DNA of 39,244 nt. It comes from Stramenopiles sp. TOSAG23-3. Its lineage: Eukaryota. The translations under genes and the position numbers were made by a program. The stretch lies in NCBI GenBank assembly GCA_900128585.1, contig LT642184.1, positions 1 through 39,244 of the forward strand, given 5' to 3'. The notes under the pieces were generated by a model. That model did not search any database. It had not been told where the DNA came from and saw only the letters and a list, made by a program, of their open reading frames with translations. Numbering within the stretch: position 1 is the stretch's first letter; every line of letters begins with the position of its first letter. This document shows, piece by piece, positions 148 to 31,614 of this stretch.

Positions 148-595
148 AATTTTAATTATTTATATATATGTATTAGTATTCTTTCCAGTCTTCCTATAAT
201 GGACAAGTAAAGGTAGGTTATTAGGTTTTAAAGGGATCATAATGTGTATTTACAAAATCCTCTTCTTTTAAATATCTAAAATAATAGGAATTTATTAGTC
301 TTTCTAAGTAAAAATGATTGTATCCTTTCTTCCCTTCCTTCTCCACTATTATATTATATACGTAGGTCTATACTATACCAGTAGTAATAAAATTCAATTC
401 CTATTCCATTCCATTTCAATTCTATTTCTATTAGAATTAACGTTCAGATTCGCCCTAACCCTAACCATAACCGCAGTTTAATTTAAAGTTTTTTTTTAGT
501 TTTAATATGATAGAAGGACATAGCATTAGGGGATGTTGGGTATTTTAAATAATATAATATATATAGTTAATATTGTAAATATACACATAGCATTA

Positions 596-742
596 GGGGA
601 TGTAGCTCAGATGGTAGAGCGCCCGCTTTGCATGTAAGTTTAAGAAGAAACAAGGACACGCACGCTGAGGACAATATCTAACATGAACACATTAATCAAT
701 ATTCCAGGCGGGAGGCATGGGGATCGATGCCCCACTTCTCCA
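596..742 (+). tRNA. trnA-UGC: tRNA-Ala(UGC), interrupted by a 74-nt intron (634-707); exons 596-633 and 708-742
   Basis: Joined exons give a 73-nt cloverleaf: GGGGATG TA GCTC AGATGGTA GAGC G CCCGC TT TGC AT | GCGGG AGGCA TGGGG ATCGATG CCCCA CTTCTCC A. Anticodon TGC is at 629-631. It has the G3:U70 alanine identity pair (598:739), the eukaryotic Ala-type T-loop ATCG and discriminator A73. One U6:U67 mismatch. Confidence 0.93.
634..707 (+). other. Intron within the tRNA-Ala gene with spliceosomal (U2-type) signals
   Basis: Starts GTAAGT (634-639), has branch-point-like CTAAC (678-682) and ends TTCCAG (702-707). Removal restores the anticodon arm exactly. Confidence 0.8.
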
Positions 743-749
743 TTTTTTT
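743..749 (+). terminator. RNA polymerase III terminator (T7)
   Basis: Run of seven T immediately after the tRNA discriminator base. Confidence 0.8.
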
Positions 750-26722: not shown

Positions 26723-29026
26723 ATGAACAACATACCCCAAACGCCGGCGACAGTGCTGGACGCCATGATGGCTGACTTTCTCGCGGAGCGGGGATACGAA
26801 GACATAGCGAAAAAGATAGACCCTCGGAACGGCTCGGCCGGCCAAGGAAGTGGTGAAAACGGCCACGCGGAGGAGTCTCGAAGCGACAGGAAGATATTTC
26901 AAACGATTCCAAAGTCGACGAAGGACGCTGGGATAGAGGACATCCTCCAGAGTTACTCCGAGCTGAGTGAATGGGTCCGCTCCTCTTTAGACTTGTACAA
27001 AAACGAGTTGTTCGGCGTGTTGTTCCCAGTGTTTTCGCACTTTTTTGTGACGCTTGCAAAAATGGGTCGGTTCAAGGAAGCGCACCAGCTTCTCGGCAAG
27101 TATGGGGACTCGTTTATGGCCACGAAAGCCGACGCGGTGTACAACTTAAAGATGATTAACTCCGCAGAACAAGTGGAGAGCCACTGCTCAGTTTCGGCGA
27201 AAAAGACCGTGCTTGCGATGAGCCAGTTCGCGTTTAATCTTCTTATATCGTTCCTGCAAGACAACAACCTCTTCCTCATCCTCACTGCGATCAACCAGAA
27301 CATTTCCGTGCGCATCACGTCCGCGGGCATGGGCGTCGGGAGCACGTCGTTGTCACCGACTCGGCAGCGGCAGGAATTTTATGCGGGGAACGACAAGGGC
27401 TGCAACAAGAAAACGGTTACGTGGGGAGTTATGAAAAAGAGGCTACGCCCAGACTCCGACGAACAGCTGGCTGAGCTCGAGCGCCTGGAAGAGAAGGCCC
27501 GCGAGGCACGACCGGCGCCGGGGACGAAGCCGAAGGTGTTGGCCAAGGAGCAGAGAAAGCAGAACAAGGAACTGAACGCGAAAATCGCGAATCATAAGAA
27601 AGAAATGGAGCAGCACAACAATAGTTCGGTGTGGATCGGTGAGAACAGCCCCCGGTTCGCCCCGGATTACTACAACAAGTACCCCGGGAAGGTGGACTGG
27701 AAAAGTGACCTCGTCAGTAAATTATTGATGCGTGCGACCCCGCTGCAGCAGAAAGCGGAAGAAACCGACTTGAAACGCATGGTCTGCCTGGGGTACACCG
27801 TTGACCATGACCCGAAACGAGCCAACAGGAAGACGGGCGAAAGCAAAACCTTCGTGGAGACCCCTGCGCTGCCGTCGATCGCGTGCTTTACCATGATGAA
27901 CACCGGCGGTATGTTGTCGTCCATGGATATTTCCGCGGACGGCGTCGTTGTTGCCGGTGGGTTCAGCGACAACATCGTTCGGCTTTGGCGACTAGATAAC
28001 GCGGATAACGAGGGCAAGGAGTATGGAGCTGGGCACGAACAGCGGCCGAGGGCACAGTCCAAGGTTGCAAAGGGGGAAGTGCAAGAATCGTACTCCCGTT
28101 TAATTGGTCACACTATGAGCGTGACGGCATGCTCGATATCGCCAGACAACCAGTGGCTGCTGACCTCGTCCCAGGATAGTACTGTGAGAAGGTGGCACAT
28201 TGGGACCGGCGCGATGACATCGAAGTTTACCCTGGCCACTGAGAGTCAGTGCCCCGTGTGGGACGTTTCGTTCGGTCCATACGGTTATTTTTTTGTCACC
28301 GGGTCGCGGGACAAGATGGCCTACTTGTGGAGCCTTGAACGAACGAGTCCCATACGGCATTTTTGGGGCCACAGGAGCGACGTGGGAAAGGTACGCTTCC
28401 ACCCGAATTCCATTTTCGTCGGGACTGGGAGCGTGGATGGCACTGTTCGTTTGTGGGACGTACGCGATGGGAATGTGGCCCGCGTTTTCGGCAAACACAA
28501 CGGGCCCATTCACTCCCTTGCGTTTTCGCCGAATGGGCAATTTATAGCTAGTTCAGGAGAACACAACCAGGTGGTCATATGGGATTTAAGGAAAGGGGCC
28601 CGATTCGGGTCGGTTGAGTGGAAGTCTACTGATGTAAACGCGATATGGTCACTCGATTATAGCTCAGATGGGACTGTCCTGGCCGGTGCAGGAAGTGACG
28701 GCAAAGTTCGCCTTTGGGATGCTGCCCTCATGCAAGGGCAAACCGAAAGGCGAGTAGAGGAATACCGGCCGCTTTTAAAGACGTTCCAAACGAAAAAGAC
28801 CCCGCTTCTGCGTTGTCGGTTTTCTCCCCGATATGGAGAAAAAGGCCATTATGGACAGGAAAGGCACAAATGTCCGTCTGAGCGTTTGCGTTCTAGGAGT
28901 GGGGCAGAATATGCCGACATGTGGTTTACAAAGGAGAATTCTTTCCTGACCCAAGAAAGCCATAGATTGTTCTGTGGGATGGACACGAATGAAGTTCAAG
29001 CGCGTGCGGGAGTATGCATTAGTTAA
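26723..29026 (+). CDS. TAF5: Transcription initiation factor TFIID subunit 5 (LisH, NTD2, WD40)
   Basis: LisH-like ADFLAERGY, NTD2 YSELSEWVRSSLDLYKNEL..LFPVFSH, LPSIACFT, WD40 repeats (GHRSDVGKVRFHPNS..TGSVDGTVRLWD) and terminal TKKTP..F. The last ~64 aa look non-homologous. Confidence 0.92.
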   Translation: MNNIPQTPATVLDAMMADFLAERGYEDIAKKIDPRNGSAGQGSGENGHAEESRSDRKIFQTIPKSTKDAGIEDILQSYSELSEWVRSSLDLYKNELFGVLFPVFSHFFVTLAKMGRFKEAHQLLGKYGDSFMATKADAVYNLKMINSAEQVESHCSVSAKKTVLAMSQFAFNLLISFLQDNNLFLILTAINQNISVRITSAGMGVGSTSLSPTRQRQEFYAGNDKGCNKKTVTWGVMKKRLRPDSDEQLAELERLEEKAREARPAPGTKPKVLAKEQRKQNKELNAKIANHKKEMEQHNNSSVWIGENSPRFAPDYYNKYPGKVDWKSDLVSKLLMRATPLQQKAEETDLKRMVCLGYTVDHDPKRANRKTGESKTFVETPALPSIACFTMMNTGGMLSSMDISADGVVVAGGFSDNIVRLWRLDNADNEGKEYGAGHEQRPRAQSKVAKGEVQESYSRLIGHTMSVTACSISPDNQWLLTSSQDSTVRRWHIGTGAMTSKFTLATESQCPVWDVSFGPYGYFFVTGSRDKMAYLWSLERTSPIRHFWGHRSDVGKVRFHPNSIFVGTGSVDGTVRLWDVRDGNVARVFGKHNGPIHSLAFSPNGQFIASSGEHNQVVIWDLRKGARFGSVEWKSTDVNAIWSLDYSSDGTVLAGAGSDGKVRLWDAALMQGQTERRVEEYRPLLKTFQTKKTPLLRCRFSPRYGEKGHYGQERHKCPSERLRSRSGAEYADMWFTKENSFLTQESHRLFCGMDTNEVQARAGVCIS

Positions 29027-29662
29027 TATCTCTTACATATATGAGTGTAAAACAGTTTTAATATGATAGCGGTATAGATTAGTGCTATATAATTTGTTTT
29101 TTAGATTAGCGCTATATCATTAGTTTTTTTAGATTAGTGTTATTTTCCTATTGTTAGTCTCTATTATATGTTGTCGGCAAAAAAGAAGAAGAAATAATAA
29201 GAGGGAAAAAAAGTAGAATTATAATAATAAAAATAGAAGAAAGAAGAAGCGGCTGCTGTTGGTTGGACTTTTTTTTCTTCGAATAAATTCCAACTACTTT
29301 TGCTAGACTAATAGCTGTGGTGGGCTGTTGTGTCTCTATTAAAATTATATATATCGTATTTTTTGACAACACAAACAAACAAGAACAGAAGAAATCTTTT
29401 TTTAATTAAATCAAATAATTTTTTACATCACGATAGTGTGGTTGCATTTTGTTATTGTCAATAATATAGTTGTTTTGTTGTTCTTTCTTCGAATTCTTTT
29501 CTGTTCTTGTTGATTGTTTAGTTATATTTTGAATCTTCGTTCTCATGTCGATTATTTTCCCCTTTCTTTTGAAAGCGACGAATATTGCCTACCATTAAAC
29601 AACAAATCGCGAAAAAAAAAAGTGTATTACATAGGTGCCATTTCAAAAGAACTTTTACAACG

Positions 29663-31447
29663 ATGGTTTTGTCCCGTTCTCTTCTCTTACTTTGCTCTTT
29701 AGCCGTCGTGTCGGCGGCAGACTCAACATGGTGTCATAACAAGTCGGCAGCTGCGAAGCCTGGTATGTATGGTGACTTAGGCCCATATATTCACCTAGTC
29801 GATAATAAAGATCTTCCGAACAATCCCACTGTGTCTGCCCTTTTCAAACAAGGACTAGCACAATTATATGGTTTTAATTTGATCGAGAGTGACAGGAATT
29901 TTCGAACTGCTGCGCAGCTGGACCCAAATTGTGTGCTTTGTTTTTGGGGCATTGCGGCTGCACACTCGCCAAGCATAAACTATTGGATCCTGGATCAAAA
30001 AAGTCTAAATGATGCAGCAAACACAGCTGTGGATCTTTTCAAGAAACAGAGTAAAACTTTAAGCGAAAAGACAAAACGATTAGTCGCTGCTGCTGCCAAA
30101 CTCATCGCACCCGCGAATCACACAGACTCTCCTAATAGCCCTTTCAGAAAAGCCTGGTCCGACTCGCTTTGCGAAGACAGCAGTGACCCGGATATTAATA
30201 CTTTCTGTGCGGGTTCCTTGATGGCTTTGACTCCATGGAATTACTACCAGGGTGTTCCTAGTGGAGGAAGATTTGATCTCAAGACAATGCTAGTTCCGGC
30301 TAAACAGAAGCTTTTGGATTCCATTGGAGTTGACGGGCGGCCTCATGTGCTTGCGATTCACCTGCTTATTCATTTACTCGAGCCCTCAAATGCGCCACTG
30401 TCGTTCCGTTGGGAAGCACTTAAAGCTGCTAAACTCTTGTTCAATGGATCCAGTTCGCATGGCGAGCTAGTACCTAGCCAGGGTCATCTTACACACATGC
30501 CGGCTCATTTATTTCTACGCACAGGCCTTTACAACGAAGGCGTGGATACTAGTACAGTTTCGACGTCAGTAAACACAATGTATGACGCAAAGTGTTTGGT
30601 GGCGTACTGCCATGGCCACAACCAGAACATGTACCTCTCCCATGCTCGAATGGCAGGACGGTTGAAAGACGGAATGGAAATTGCCACGCATATACTGAAC
30701 CGCAAGACTGCAGGAGATGAACCTGCACTAGGGATGACAGCCCACATCTGTTGCGACTGTGGAGGCCCCGGAAGTGCCGGCGGCGTGATGACTCTAATGC
30801 GATTCGGGAAGTGGGAGGAAATTCTGAAGATGAACGTCCCCGCTCCATCTGCCTTCGACCCAGTGGACCAGAATTGGGCCCAGCAGCAACGTGCTATGTG
30901 GCACTACACACGCGCTGCTGCTTACTGGGCTCTCTCCGACAATGGGGAGAAAGAAGATATGGTGAAATCTGGGGATGCTGAAGCTGTGCTGAGTAAGGCT
31001 GCAGCAAAGAACTGTGCAGACCCAGGAAATTTCGTCAATCTGACTGCGATTATTCCAGCAGAACTCGATGGTCTTCGGTCATACCACATTGATCAAGACT
31101 GGAAAAAAGCAATCCAAAGCTACAGAGCTGCTGTTGCTTACGACGATAATAATCCATATATGGAACCACCCCCGATGTACTACCCCCCACGCCATTGCCT
31201 TGGGGCATTGCTTGCTAACGCACCAGAGGCGGCGGGAGGTAATATTACAGAGGCATTGGAGACTTTTGAATGGGATCTTACTGCGTTTGTTGATAATGGG
31301 TGGTCTCTTTACGGTGCCGCTGATGCTGCACAAAAACTTGGTGAAGTAAGCAAAGCAAAAGATTATCAAACTCGTGCAGACATTGCTTGGGCCCGTGCTG
31401 ACGATAGTTTTGTTTCTCCTTGTCCCCAGTTGTTTGCAAAGAAGTGA
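29663..31447 (+). CDS. Secreted TPR-like helical protein with conserved His-rich motifs
   Basis: Signal peptide MVLSRSLLLLCSLAVVSAA. Motifs FKQGL..YGFN..E..R.F..A..LDP.C..C.WG, HLLIHLLE, GHLTHMPAHLF, LMRFGKWEEIL, Y.EPP..YYP.RH.LGA and NGWSL.G. Confidence 0.8.
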   Translation: MVLSRSLLLLCSLAVVSAADSTWCHNKSAAAKPGMYGDLGPYIHLVDNKDLPNNPTVSALFKQGLAQLYGFNLIESDRNFRTAAQLDPNCVLCFWGIAAAHSPSINYWILDQKSLNDAANTAVDLFKKQSKTLSEKTKRLVAAAAKLIAPANHTDSPNSPFRKAWSDSLCEDSSDPDINTFCAGSLMALTPWNYYQGVPSGGRFDLKTMLVPAKQKLLDSIGVDGRPHVLAIHLLIHLLEPSNAPLSFRWEALKAAKLLFNGSSSHGELVPSQGHLTHMPAHLFLRTGLYNEGVDTSTVSTSVNTMYDAKCLVAYCHGHNQNMYLSHARMAGRLKDGMEIATHILNRKTAGDEPALGMTAHICCDCGGPGSAGGVMTLMRFGKWEEILKMNVPAPSAFDPVDQNWAQQQRAMWHYTRAAAYWALSDNGEKEDMVKSGDAEAVLSKAAAKNCADPGNFVNLTAIIPAELDGLRSYHIDQDWKKAIQSYRAAVAYDDNNPYMEPPPMYYPPRHCLGALLANAPEAAGGNITEALETFEWDLTAFVDNGWSLYGAADAAQKLGEVSKAKDYQTRADIAWARADDSFVSPCPQLFAKK

Positions 31448-31614
31448 TTCAATATGACCATTTGTATTTTGGTTTATCCCTCGAAACATTTGATGGTTTC
31501 CGGGGCCACATATATAAAGTATATAATTTGTTTTTTTATAAAAGTATGGAGAACCGTACCCCGTACAGTGTACGGTAAAAAAAAGTAAAAAACGAAAAAT
31601 ACATTGGTGTGTGT

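Follow-up and report, generated by a model that had tools for sequence, protein, structure and literature searches.

Textbooks and current reviews see no relation between spliceosomal introns and tRNA introns and assign each class its own machinery (passages in PMC12530127 and PMC3978253). A review of the tRNA splicing endonuclease (TSEN) places eukaryotic tRNA introns invariably at position 37/38 and describes the proximal anticodon–intron pair as conserved and critical (relevant sections of PMC10485636); non-canonical bulge-helix-bulge (BHB) tRNA introns are reported from red algae, nucleomorphs and archaea, and long introns from Ostreococcus (excerpts of PMC13578239 and PMC3978253). Spliceosomal introns are also described in U6 genes that RNA polymerase III (Pol III) transcribes, in U1, U2 and U5 genes and in rRNA genes, with reverse splicing as their proposed source (passages in PMC5855946). 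The U6 introns of fission yeast and other fungi trace to Tani and Ohshima (1989, 1991; cited in PMC5855946), and the same passages state that many U6 introns still await experimental validation. The rRNA-gene examples come from ascomycetes and from the diatom family Chaetocerotaceae (sections of PMC6306197; Bhattacharya 2000, cited there), and the short ribosomal DNA (rDNA) inserts of the diatoms are described as having 'usually GTAAGT', 'commonly YTAAC' and YAG. Here we describe a tRNA-Ala(UGC) gene that is interrupted beside its anticodon by a 74-nt insert with signals resembling those of an mRNA intron. It lies near one end of a 39,244-nt stretch of DNA assigned to Stramenopiles sp. TOSAG23-3 (contig LT642184.1, assembly GCA_900128585.1), the whole of which is called the window below.

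We tentatively read the insert as a U2-type GT–AG intron of the spliceosomal kind, located at position 38/39 of a Pol III-transcribed tRNA-Ala(UGC) gene, which the spliceosome would remove to leave a normal UUUGCAU loop; we regard this as quite possible, if short of probable. It is favored because the splice-type signals are placed exactly at the insert ends, U38 is restored only in that register, both marks of an endonuclease intron are absent, and precedents in other non-mRNA genes are known.

The tRNA-Ala(UGC) gene and the signals of its insert

The gene is recognized on the forward strand by the Rfam model RF00005 at 596–742 (42.2 bits, E 8.8e-06, bit-score threshold 29), which aligns in full over model positions 1–71 and leaves 76 nt unaligned within the anticodon loop. 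Relaxing the cut-off to E ≤ 1 brings up no other Rfam match anywhere in the 39 kb. ARAGORN run without its intron option calls no tRNA in the window; with option -i it returns tRNA-Ala(tgc) with a mature length of 73 nt, an intron of 74 nt and the line 'Insertion Position(38-39): tgcat-Intron-gcggg'. A first-pass annotation of this DNA, made from the sequence alone, had proposed a tRNA-Ala(UGC) gene at these coordinates and had deduced from exact GT...AG removal an insertion at 38/39; RF00005 and ARAGORN -i bear out the former, and ARAGORN -i the latter.

Apart from the insert, the gene looks usable: it has the identity pair G3 (598) and U70 (739), elements resembling the A and B boxes, and the T7 run. 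Its T-loop, ATCGATG with A54, is normal for this tRNA family, as ATCGATG and ATCGATA are the commonest forms among the matches listed (18 of 40 distinct intronless relatives). A cloverleaf above the Rfam threshold, G3:U70 and Pol III elements together place it among cytosolic tRNA-Ala genes. The annotation had called the exons, G3:U70 and the T7 run intact, which the sequence confirms; a mismatch in the acceptor stem, to which we return below, had escaped it.

By sequence the insert qualifies as a U2-type intron, since it carries the three defining signals: a U1-complementary GU hexamer, a YTRAY motif roughly 10–50 nt from the end, and a YAG that is the first after the branch motif. The positions given earlier for GTAAGT (634), CTAAC (678–682, where A681 is followed by the end 26 nt later) and TTCCAG (ending at 707) all hold on the sequence (Table 1). 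The terminal AG is the sole AG within 683–707 and hence the first past the branch motif. CAU/GUAAGU agrees with the consensus CAG/GUAAGU at 8 of 9 positions, and the insertion site CAU/G agrees with the proto-splice site at 3 of 4. T runs stop Pol III; the sense strand of the insert contains no run of T4 or longer, and the flanks are rich in T4 runs.

We then asked how readily such a signal set arises by chance. The string GTAAGT..CTAAC..YAG occurs once in the window, namely in the tRNA insert; with 0.33 matches expected and at least one match in 27 of 100 shuffles, its presence somewhere in 39 kb is unremarkable. What is remarkable is that it falls precisely on the ends of the insert. If 74-nt inserts are drawn at random with the local composition, the analytic probability that the signals are so placed is 2.1e-7 to 2.9e-7 for the strict set (GTAAGT/CTAAC/YAG) and 2.2e-6 to 4.8e-6 for a relaxed one (GTRAGT/YTRAY/YAG); simulations of 400,000 random inserts each gave no strict match and 5 and 2 relaxed matches. 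These figures bear on one rival explanation, in which the insert is an atypical endonuclease intron, cut at 37/38 (leaving G38) or, by way of a relaxed BHB, at a displaced site, with the exons sealed by tRNA ligase, and in which GT...CTAAC...AG stands there by accident. Such an account must accept a coincidence of 2e-7 to 5e-6 per insert. The locus was picked from a very large scan, in which rare coincidences are to be expected; even so, chance is the less likely explanation of the signals.

Splice registers, endonuclease marks and a second strain

The same rival makes predictions about where the precursor is cut. In the canonical 37/38 register the intron spans 633–706, its third-last base is C704, and exon 2 would begin with G707 as G38, giving the junction UUUGCA/GGCGGGAGG; removal at 38/39 would give UUUGCAU/GCGGGAGG. 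We compared these products with related genes by scanning metagenome contigs with the last 20 bases up to A37, which yielded at least 120 loci and at least 132 matches. Among the matches listed, 110 are intronless genes with the same 5' half, and position 38 is T in 80 of them and A in 28, with a single C and a single G. U38 is thus a conserved base among the intronless relatives, and here it is restored only by the GT–AG register or by its equivalent shifted by one G. The remaining 22 listed matches reduce to 19 distinct forms: the second strain L016 described below, 6 degenerate forms that could not be parsed, and 12 other intron-bearing Ala(UGC) forms. Position 38 is T or A in all 12, and 11 of them have a purine able to pair with U32 at intron position −3, the exception being L049. 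These results uphold the earlier claim that cutting at 37/38 would leave U32 facing C704 without a pair and would produce an atypical G38, the base seen in a single one of the 110 intronless matches listed. An intronless copy of this exact gene is absent among the at least 120 loci listed, an absence without evidential weight.

Several unrelated metagenome Ala(UGC) genes of eukaryotic type (L044, L014/L059/L076/L095, L049, L069, L083, L092 and L116) carry canonical introns of 7–34 nt whose first base is T and behind which stands T38; introns in Ala tRNA genes are therefore not rare in environmental eukaryotes.

The two marks of a TSEN intron, a 37/38 position and pairing of base 32 with the intron's third-last base, are both lacking in the tRNA-Ala insert. 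We also looked for the BHB motif. Of its four central pairs, none forms in the 37/38 register, the anticodon–intron pair U32–C704 included; one forms at 38/39, where U32 stands opposite C705; and three form at 39/40, next to a weak outer helix of three pairs, two of them G–U. A full BHB, that is, a 4-bp helix with two 3-nt bulges at the cut sites, was found in none of the registers 37/38, 38/39 and 39/40, and on these pair counts a BHB intron was rejected.

Predicted folding of the precursor is no more stable than that of shuffled sequences (z −0.26 for the whole gene and −0.39 for the anticodon arm plus intron) and so gives no sign of extra structure. In the predictions the branch motif is largely exposed, with an unpaired fraction of 0.90–0.94 (0.90 with the cloverleaf imposed). 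In the minimum-free-energy fold, the anticodon UGC pairs with an intron GCA.

Taken together, these features leave an atypical endonuclease intron distinctly unlikely. In its favor, the endonuclease is the only known route of tRNA intron removal in eukaryotes (passages in PMC12530127 and PMC10485636), and some unicellular algae have off-position or long (~64 nt) tRNA introns (excerpts of PMC13578239). Intron and exon 2 both begin with G, so cutting at 39/40 would yield the same mature tRNA as cutting at 38/39, with the 3/4 central and three outer pairs noted above; the UGC–GCA pairing would suit such an intron, and L049, one of the 12 intron-bearing forms listed, likewise does without a U32-pairable base at −3. 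Against it stand the coincidence of signals, a canonical register that offers no anticodon–intron pair and leaves the nearly unique G38, the lack of a full BHB in every register, the unremarkable folding of the precursor, and the changes seen in a second strain, which, as judged by hand, appear to break predicted insert pairs without compensation.

That strain is represented by L016, an independent metagenome contig of 2861 bp from the same species and locus, which carries the same gene (42.6 bits with Rfam) with an insert of 69 nt. The alignment of the window with L016 covers 2158 bases and shows 18 differing positions and 9 gaps. The exons are identical (0 of 73 bases differ), and the insert of L016 differs by five substitutions (644, 647, 651, 692 and 693) and a 5-nt deletion, an approximately 12-fold enrichment of differences over the rest of the 2158 nt (Fisher p 1.8e-4). 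The interior of the insert is therefore free to vary in both sequence and length. GTAAGT, CTAAC and CAG are unchanged, and a TT-to-CC change between the branch motif and the 3' end keeps pyrimidines in place. By our own arithmetic, random placement of the L016 changes would miss all three signals with a probability of ~0.28; with so few events, their retention does not prove selection on the signals.

L016 also bears on whether the insert exists. An assembly error or chimera, with an insert absent from the organism's DNA, would be conceivable for a source that is apparently uncultured, since such assemblies can be error-prone. The independent contig carries gene and insert with variants of its own, namely the 69-nt length and different copy numbers of two neighboring tandem repeats; the insert is hence no assembly artefact, and we consider that explanation very improbable. 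The repeats concerned are a 33-nt unit just 3' of the tRNA gene (796–963) and the 8-nt unit TCAGAGTT (1024–1065), and the corresponding differences in L016 are a 38-nt deletion and an 8-nt insertion.

Locus, host and points against a spliceosomal intron

The gene and its insert lie within a 1.5-kb AT-rich, repeat-filled stretch, and the features of the locus are collected in Table 1. The 5' flank together with the first 8 tRNA nucleotides recurs as a perfect direct repeat 67 nt upstream, which may be what is left of a duplication at the locus or of an insertion in the past. An interstitial telomere-like stretch, CCCTAACCCTAACCATAACC, occupies 452–473, 125 nt upstream of the tRNA gene, and a (GAAA)n microsatellite fills positions 1–137 of the window.

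Table 1. Coordinates of the tRNA-Ala(UGC) gene, its insert and associated elements in the window
Feature	Position	Strand	Basis
19-nt perfect direct repeat of 585–603 (5' flank and first 8 tRNA nt), 67 nt upstream	518–536	+	blastn, 100%; also in L016
Exon 1, tRNA positions 1–38	596–633	+	Rfam alignment, ARAGORN -i, sequence
A-box-like element TAGCTCAGATGG	603–614	+	sequence against the A-box consensus
Anticodon TGC	629–631	+	Rfam alignment, ARAGORN -i
Insert, 74 nt, position 38/39, GT start, AG end, A-rich (A32 T15 C14 G13)	634–707	+	ARAGORN -i, sequence
5' splice-site-like hexamer GTAAGT	634–639	+	sequence; same in L016
Branch-point-like CTAAC, A681 26 nt before the 3' end	678–682	+	sequence; same in L016
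3' splice-site-like TTCCAG (CAG at 705–707)	702–707	+	sequence; same in L016
Exon 2, tRNA positions 39–73	708–742	+	Rfam, ARAGORN -i, sequence
B-box-like element GGATCGATGCC	721–731	+	sequence against the consensus
T7 run, Pol III terminator-like, immediately 3' of the discriminator base	743–749	+	sequence

The window holds ~18 compact, seemingly single-exon eukaryotic genes, including those for RPAP3-like, Dus, M14 peptidase, lectin/TIG, TAF5, THOC3, SET-ankyrin and PB1 proteins. Named relatives of the Dus protein are from oomycetes and brown algae (45–49% identity), and the best named relative of TAF5 is labeled 'Stramenopile-MAST_4' by its source (51% over residues 1–440, 57% by tblastn). 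For THOC3, a search with a strict E-value cut-off of 1e-40 gave two relatives, neither of them named, and a protein atlas yielded no helpful placement. DNA of the window occurs in many marine or seawater metagenomes and metatranscriptomes; part of the region is present in 20 of the 24 runs listed, 6 of which are recorded as RNA. To judge from its sequences, the host is an uncultured marine stramenopile related to MAST-4.

TAF5 was considered as a source of a reference mRNA intron. Its reading frame (26723–31510 region) is 100% identical to P0123, the deposited protein, as far as residue 703 (position 28831 of the window) and no further. Beyond that residue P0123 continues with 11 conserved residues (NILMVSGA..., common to MAST-4 and other relatives); in the window the conserved last residues of TAF5 are encoded ~2.65 kb downstream, at ~31473–31507, and the frame is broken. 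A 620-residue open reading frame with a weak TPR match (29585–31447) lies between the two parts, and imperfect 14-nt direct repeats flank the block. The interruption was rejected as a reference intron because its inferred junctions lack GT–AG and the frame is broken; the intervening block may represent inserted DNA, a difference between strains or a long intron of unusual type.

A number of observations weigh against a spliceosomal intron in the tRNA-Ala gene. tRNA genes belong to Pol III, and the polymerase with which splicing normally goes together is RNA polymerase II (Pol II). A U2-type intron would be expected in a Pol II transcript, and this insert lies in a tRNA gene that has box-like elements within it and a T7 run after it; the U6 introns indicate that a Pol II host is not an absolute requirement (passages in PMC5855946). 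Pyrimidines make up 50% of 683–704, between the branch motif and the 3' end, a weak tract that would be expected in a tRNA gene because Pol III would stop at T runs. The 5' and 3' splice-site-like sequences are predicted, with the cloverleaf imposed, to be only 0.35 and 0.22 unpaired and are thus partly paired. Among the ~18 genes of the window, inspection of 15 GTAAGT sites, a codon-usage map, GT..branch..AG joins and N-termini by eye revealed no convincing mRNA intron; either the window is unusually intron-free or its introns are of a kind that these scans miss. Published MAST-4 assemblies have been called compact and credited with 'few but long introns' at 0.36–0.56 per gene, and their predicted introns, with means of 260 and 332 bp, are longer than 74 nt (PMC5269757, Table 1 and associated text). 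A search of full-text literature found no spliceosomal intron in any tRNA gene (supplementary files, such as the Ostreococcus appendix of PMC13578239, lie outside such text), and with none on record there the prior for the reading we favor is low.

Other points on the same side bear on the state of the gene. The acceptor stem contains a U6/U67 mismatch (601/736), visible in the Rfam NC line and in the ARAGORN drawing, and, as expected from it, the Rfam score is somewhat low: seven comparison loci score 47.9–63.9 bits, and the three intron-bearing Ala(UGC) genes among them score 47.9–48.3, so that 42.2 bits is the lowest value in that comparison. Outside the insert, window and L016 diverge by 0.6%, and at this distance identical exons say little. 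The insert might mark a disabled gene, in which a transposed spliceosomal intron or other DNA has landed in a tRNA-Ala gene whose transcript stays unspliced and never matures, leaving a young pseudogene that is tolerated because other Ala tRNA genes exist. The mismatch and low score would fit, as would the AT-rich repeat setting and the 19-nt duplication of the 5' end, which speak of local rearrangement; on paper a precise insertion restores a perfect tRNA irrespective of its ever being removed, and the two strains are too close for exon identity to reveal selection. Decay is not what the rest of the gene suggests, with exons, G3:U70, box-like elements and terminator all intact, no exon difference between the strains (0/73) against 5/69 plus an indel in the insert, and a sense strand free of T4 despite T4-rich flanks. 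An intron with a complete signal set, moreover, would probably be recognized. On balance we hold a disabled gene to be somewhat unlikely.

Proposed maturation route and comparison with known systems

If the insert is a spliceosomal-type intron, its removal can be outlined as follows, each step being inferred from the observed gene, insert, signal set, missing endonuclease marks and second strain. Pol III would transcribe the whole 147-nt unit, the insert having no T4 and the T7 run following the gene, and the anticodon stem (27–31/39–43) would keep both exon ends together. U1 would then pair with CAU/GUAAGU and U2 with the exposed CUAAC, and the spliceosome would excise the insert as a lariat branched at A681, joining U38 to G39 and producing a normal 7-nt anticodon loop, UUUGCAU. 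The intron itself was probably gained when reverse splicing, or intron transposition of some other form, placed it in the proto-splice-like CAU/G. That a eukaryote should mature a Pol III tRNA precursor with its spliceosome in this way, lariat removal taking the place of the tRNA splicing endonuclease, is a possibility that we put forward with reserve. The first-pass annotation had proposed this interpretation. Its sequence-level expectations stand, namely the signals, the first AG, the restored U38, the absence of pair and BHB, and the agreement of L016; the introner origin that the annotation also suggested found no support, and the role of the spliceosome is a conjecture as before.

Should RNA data confirm it, this would be the first mRNA-type intron in a tRNA gene. 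A spliceosome-dependent tRNA gene would blur the division between the two intron classes, and tRNA would join U6, U1, U2, U5 and rRNA among the non-mRNA hosts. It would also offer a natural case in which to study how a small and highly structured transcript of Pol III is spliced, and a new example of intron gain. tRNA finders that fix introns at 37/38 would mis-annotate such genes as canonical, and similar cases may therefore hide in existing genomes.

How does the locus compare with the systems already described? Like TSEN introns, the tRNA-Ala insert sits in the anticodon loop beside the anticodon, is of permitted length and allows a short UGC:GCA pairing. It differs from them in its position at 38/39 (unless G38 is accepted), in having no pair at −3 and in lacking a bulged 3' site. 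With the introns of red algae, nucleomorphs, archaea and Ostreococcus, as the available excerpts describe them, it shares a location off 37/38 or an unusual length, and a small marine or algal genome. The red-algal, nucleomorph and archaeal introns are defined in those accounts by a BHB at the junctions, whereas the tRNA-Ala insert forms none in the registers that yield a proper tRNA.

Introners, a subject associated with Gozashti (2022), are reportedly transposon-borne spliceosomal introns of marine protists. They resemble the tRNA-Ala insert as lineage-specific gains of a complete intron in a marine protist. In contrast to introners, no further copy of the insert was seen with blastn, either within the window or across 670 kb of metagenome loci listed, and no terminal inverted repeats, end repeats or target-site duplication were seen by eye; the suggested introner origin finds no support in this. 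Collections of viral contigs and genome contigs gave 0 matches to the junction 21-mer and to a generic pattern of Ala+GTAAGT.

The U6 introns come closer. In S. pombe, the U6 intron is spliced by the spliceosome. As the published passages present them, these introns share with the tRNA-Ala insert a GT–AG structure with a branch motif, a short structured Pol III RNA gene as host and a presumed origin by reverse splicing. They differ in that the tRNA host has a dedicated endonuclease pathway and that the tRNA-Ala insert is known from sequence alone; we know of no contact between tRNA and the spliceosome's active site.

The rDNA inserts of Chaetocerotaceae are found in genes of RNA polymerase I, measure 96–199 bp and occupy many sites, whereas the tRNA-Ala gene holds a single 74-nt insert and belongs to Pol III. 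According to the sections that describe them, the rDNA cases rest mostly on sequence features, and their likeness to the present locus is fourfold: the same signal set, short length, a host gene outside Pol II, and an origin in marine stramenopiles.

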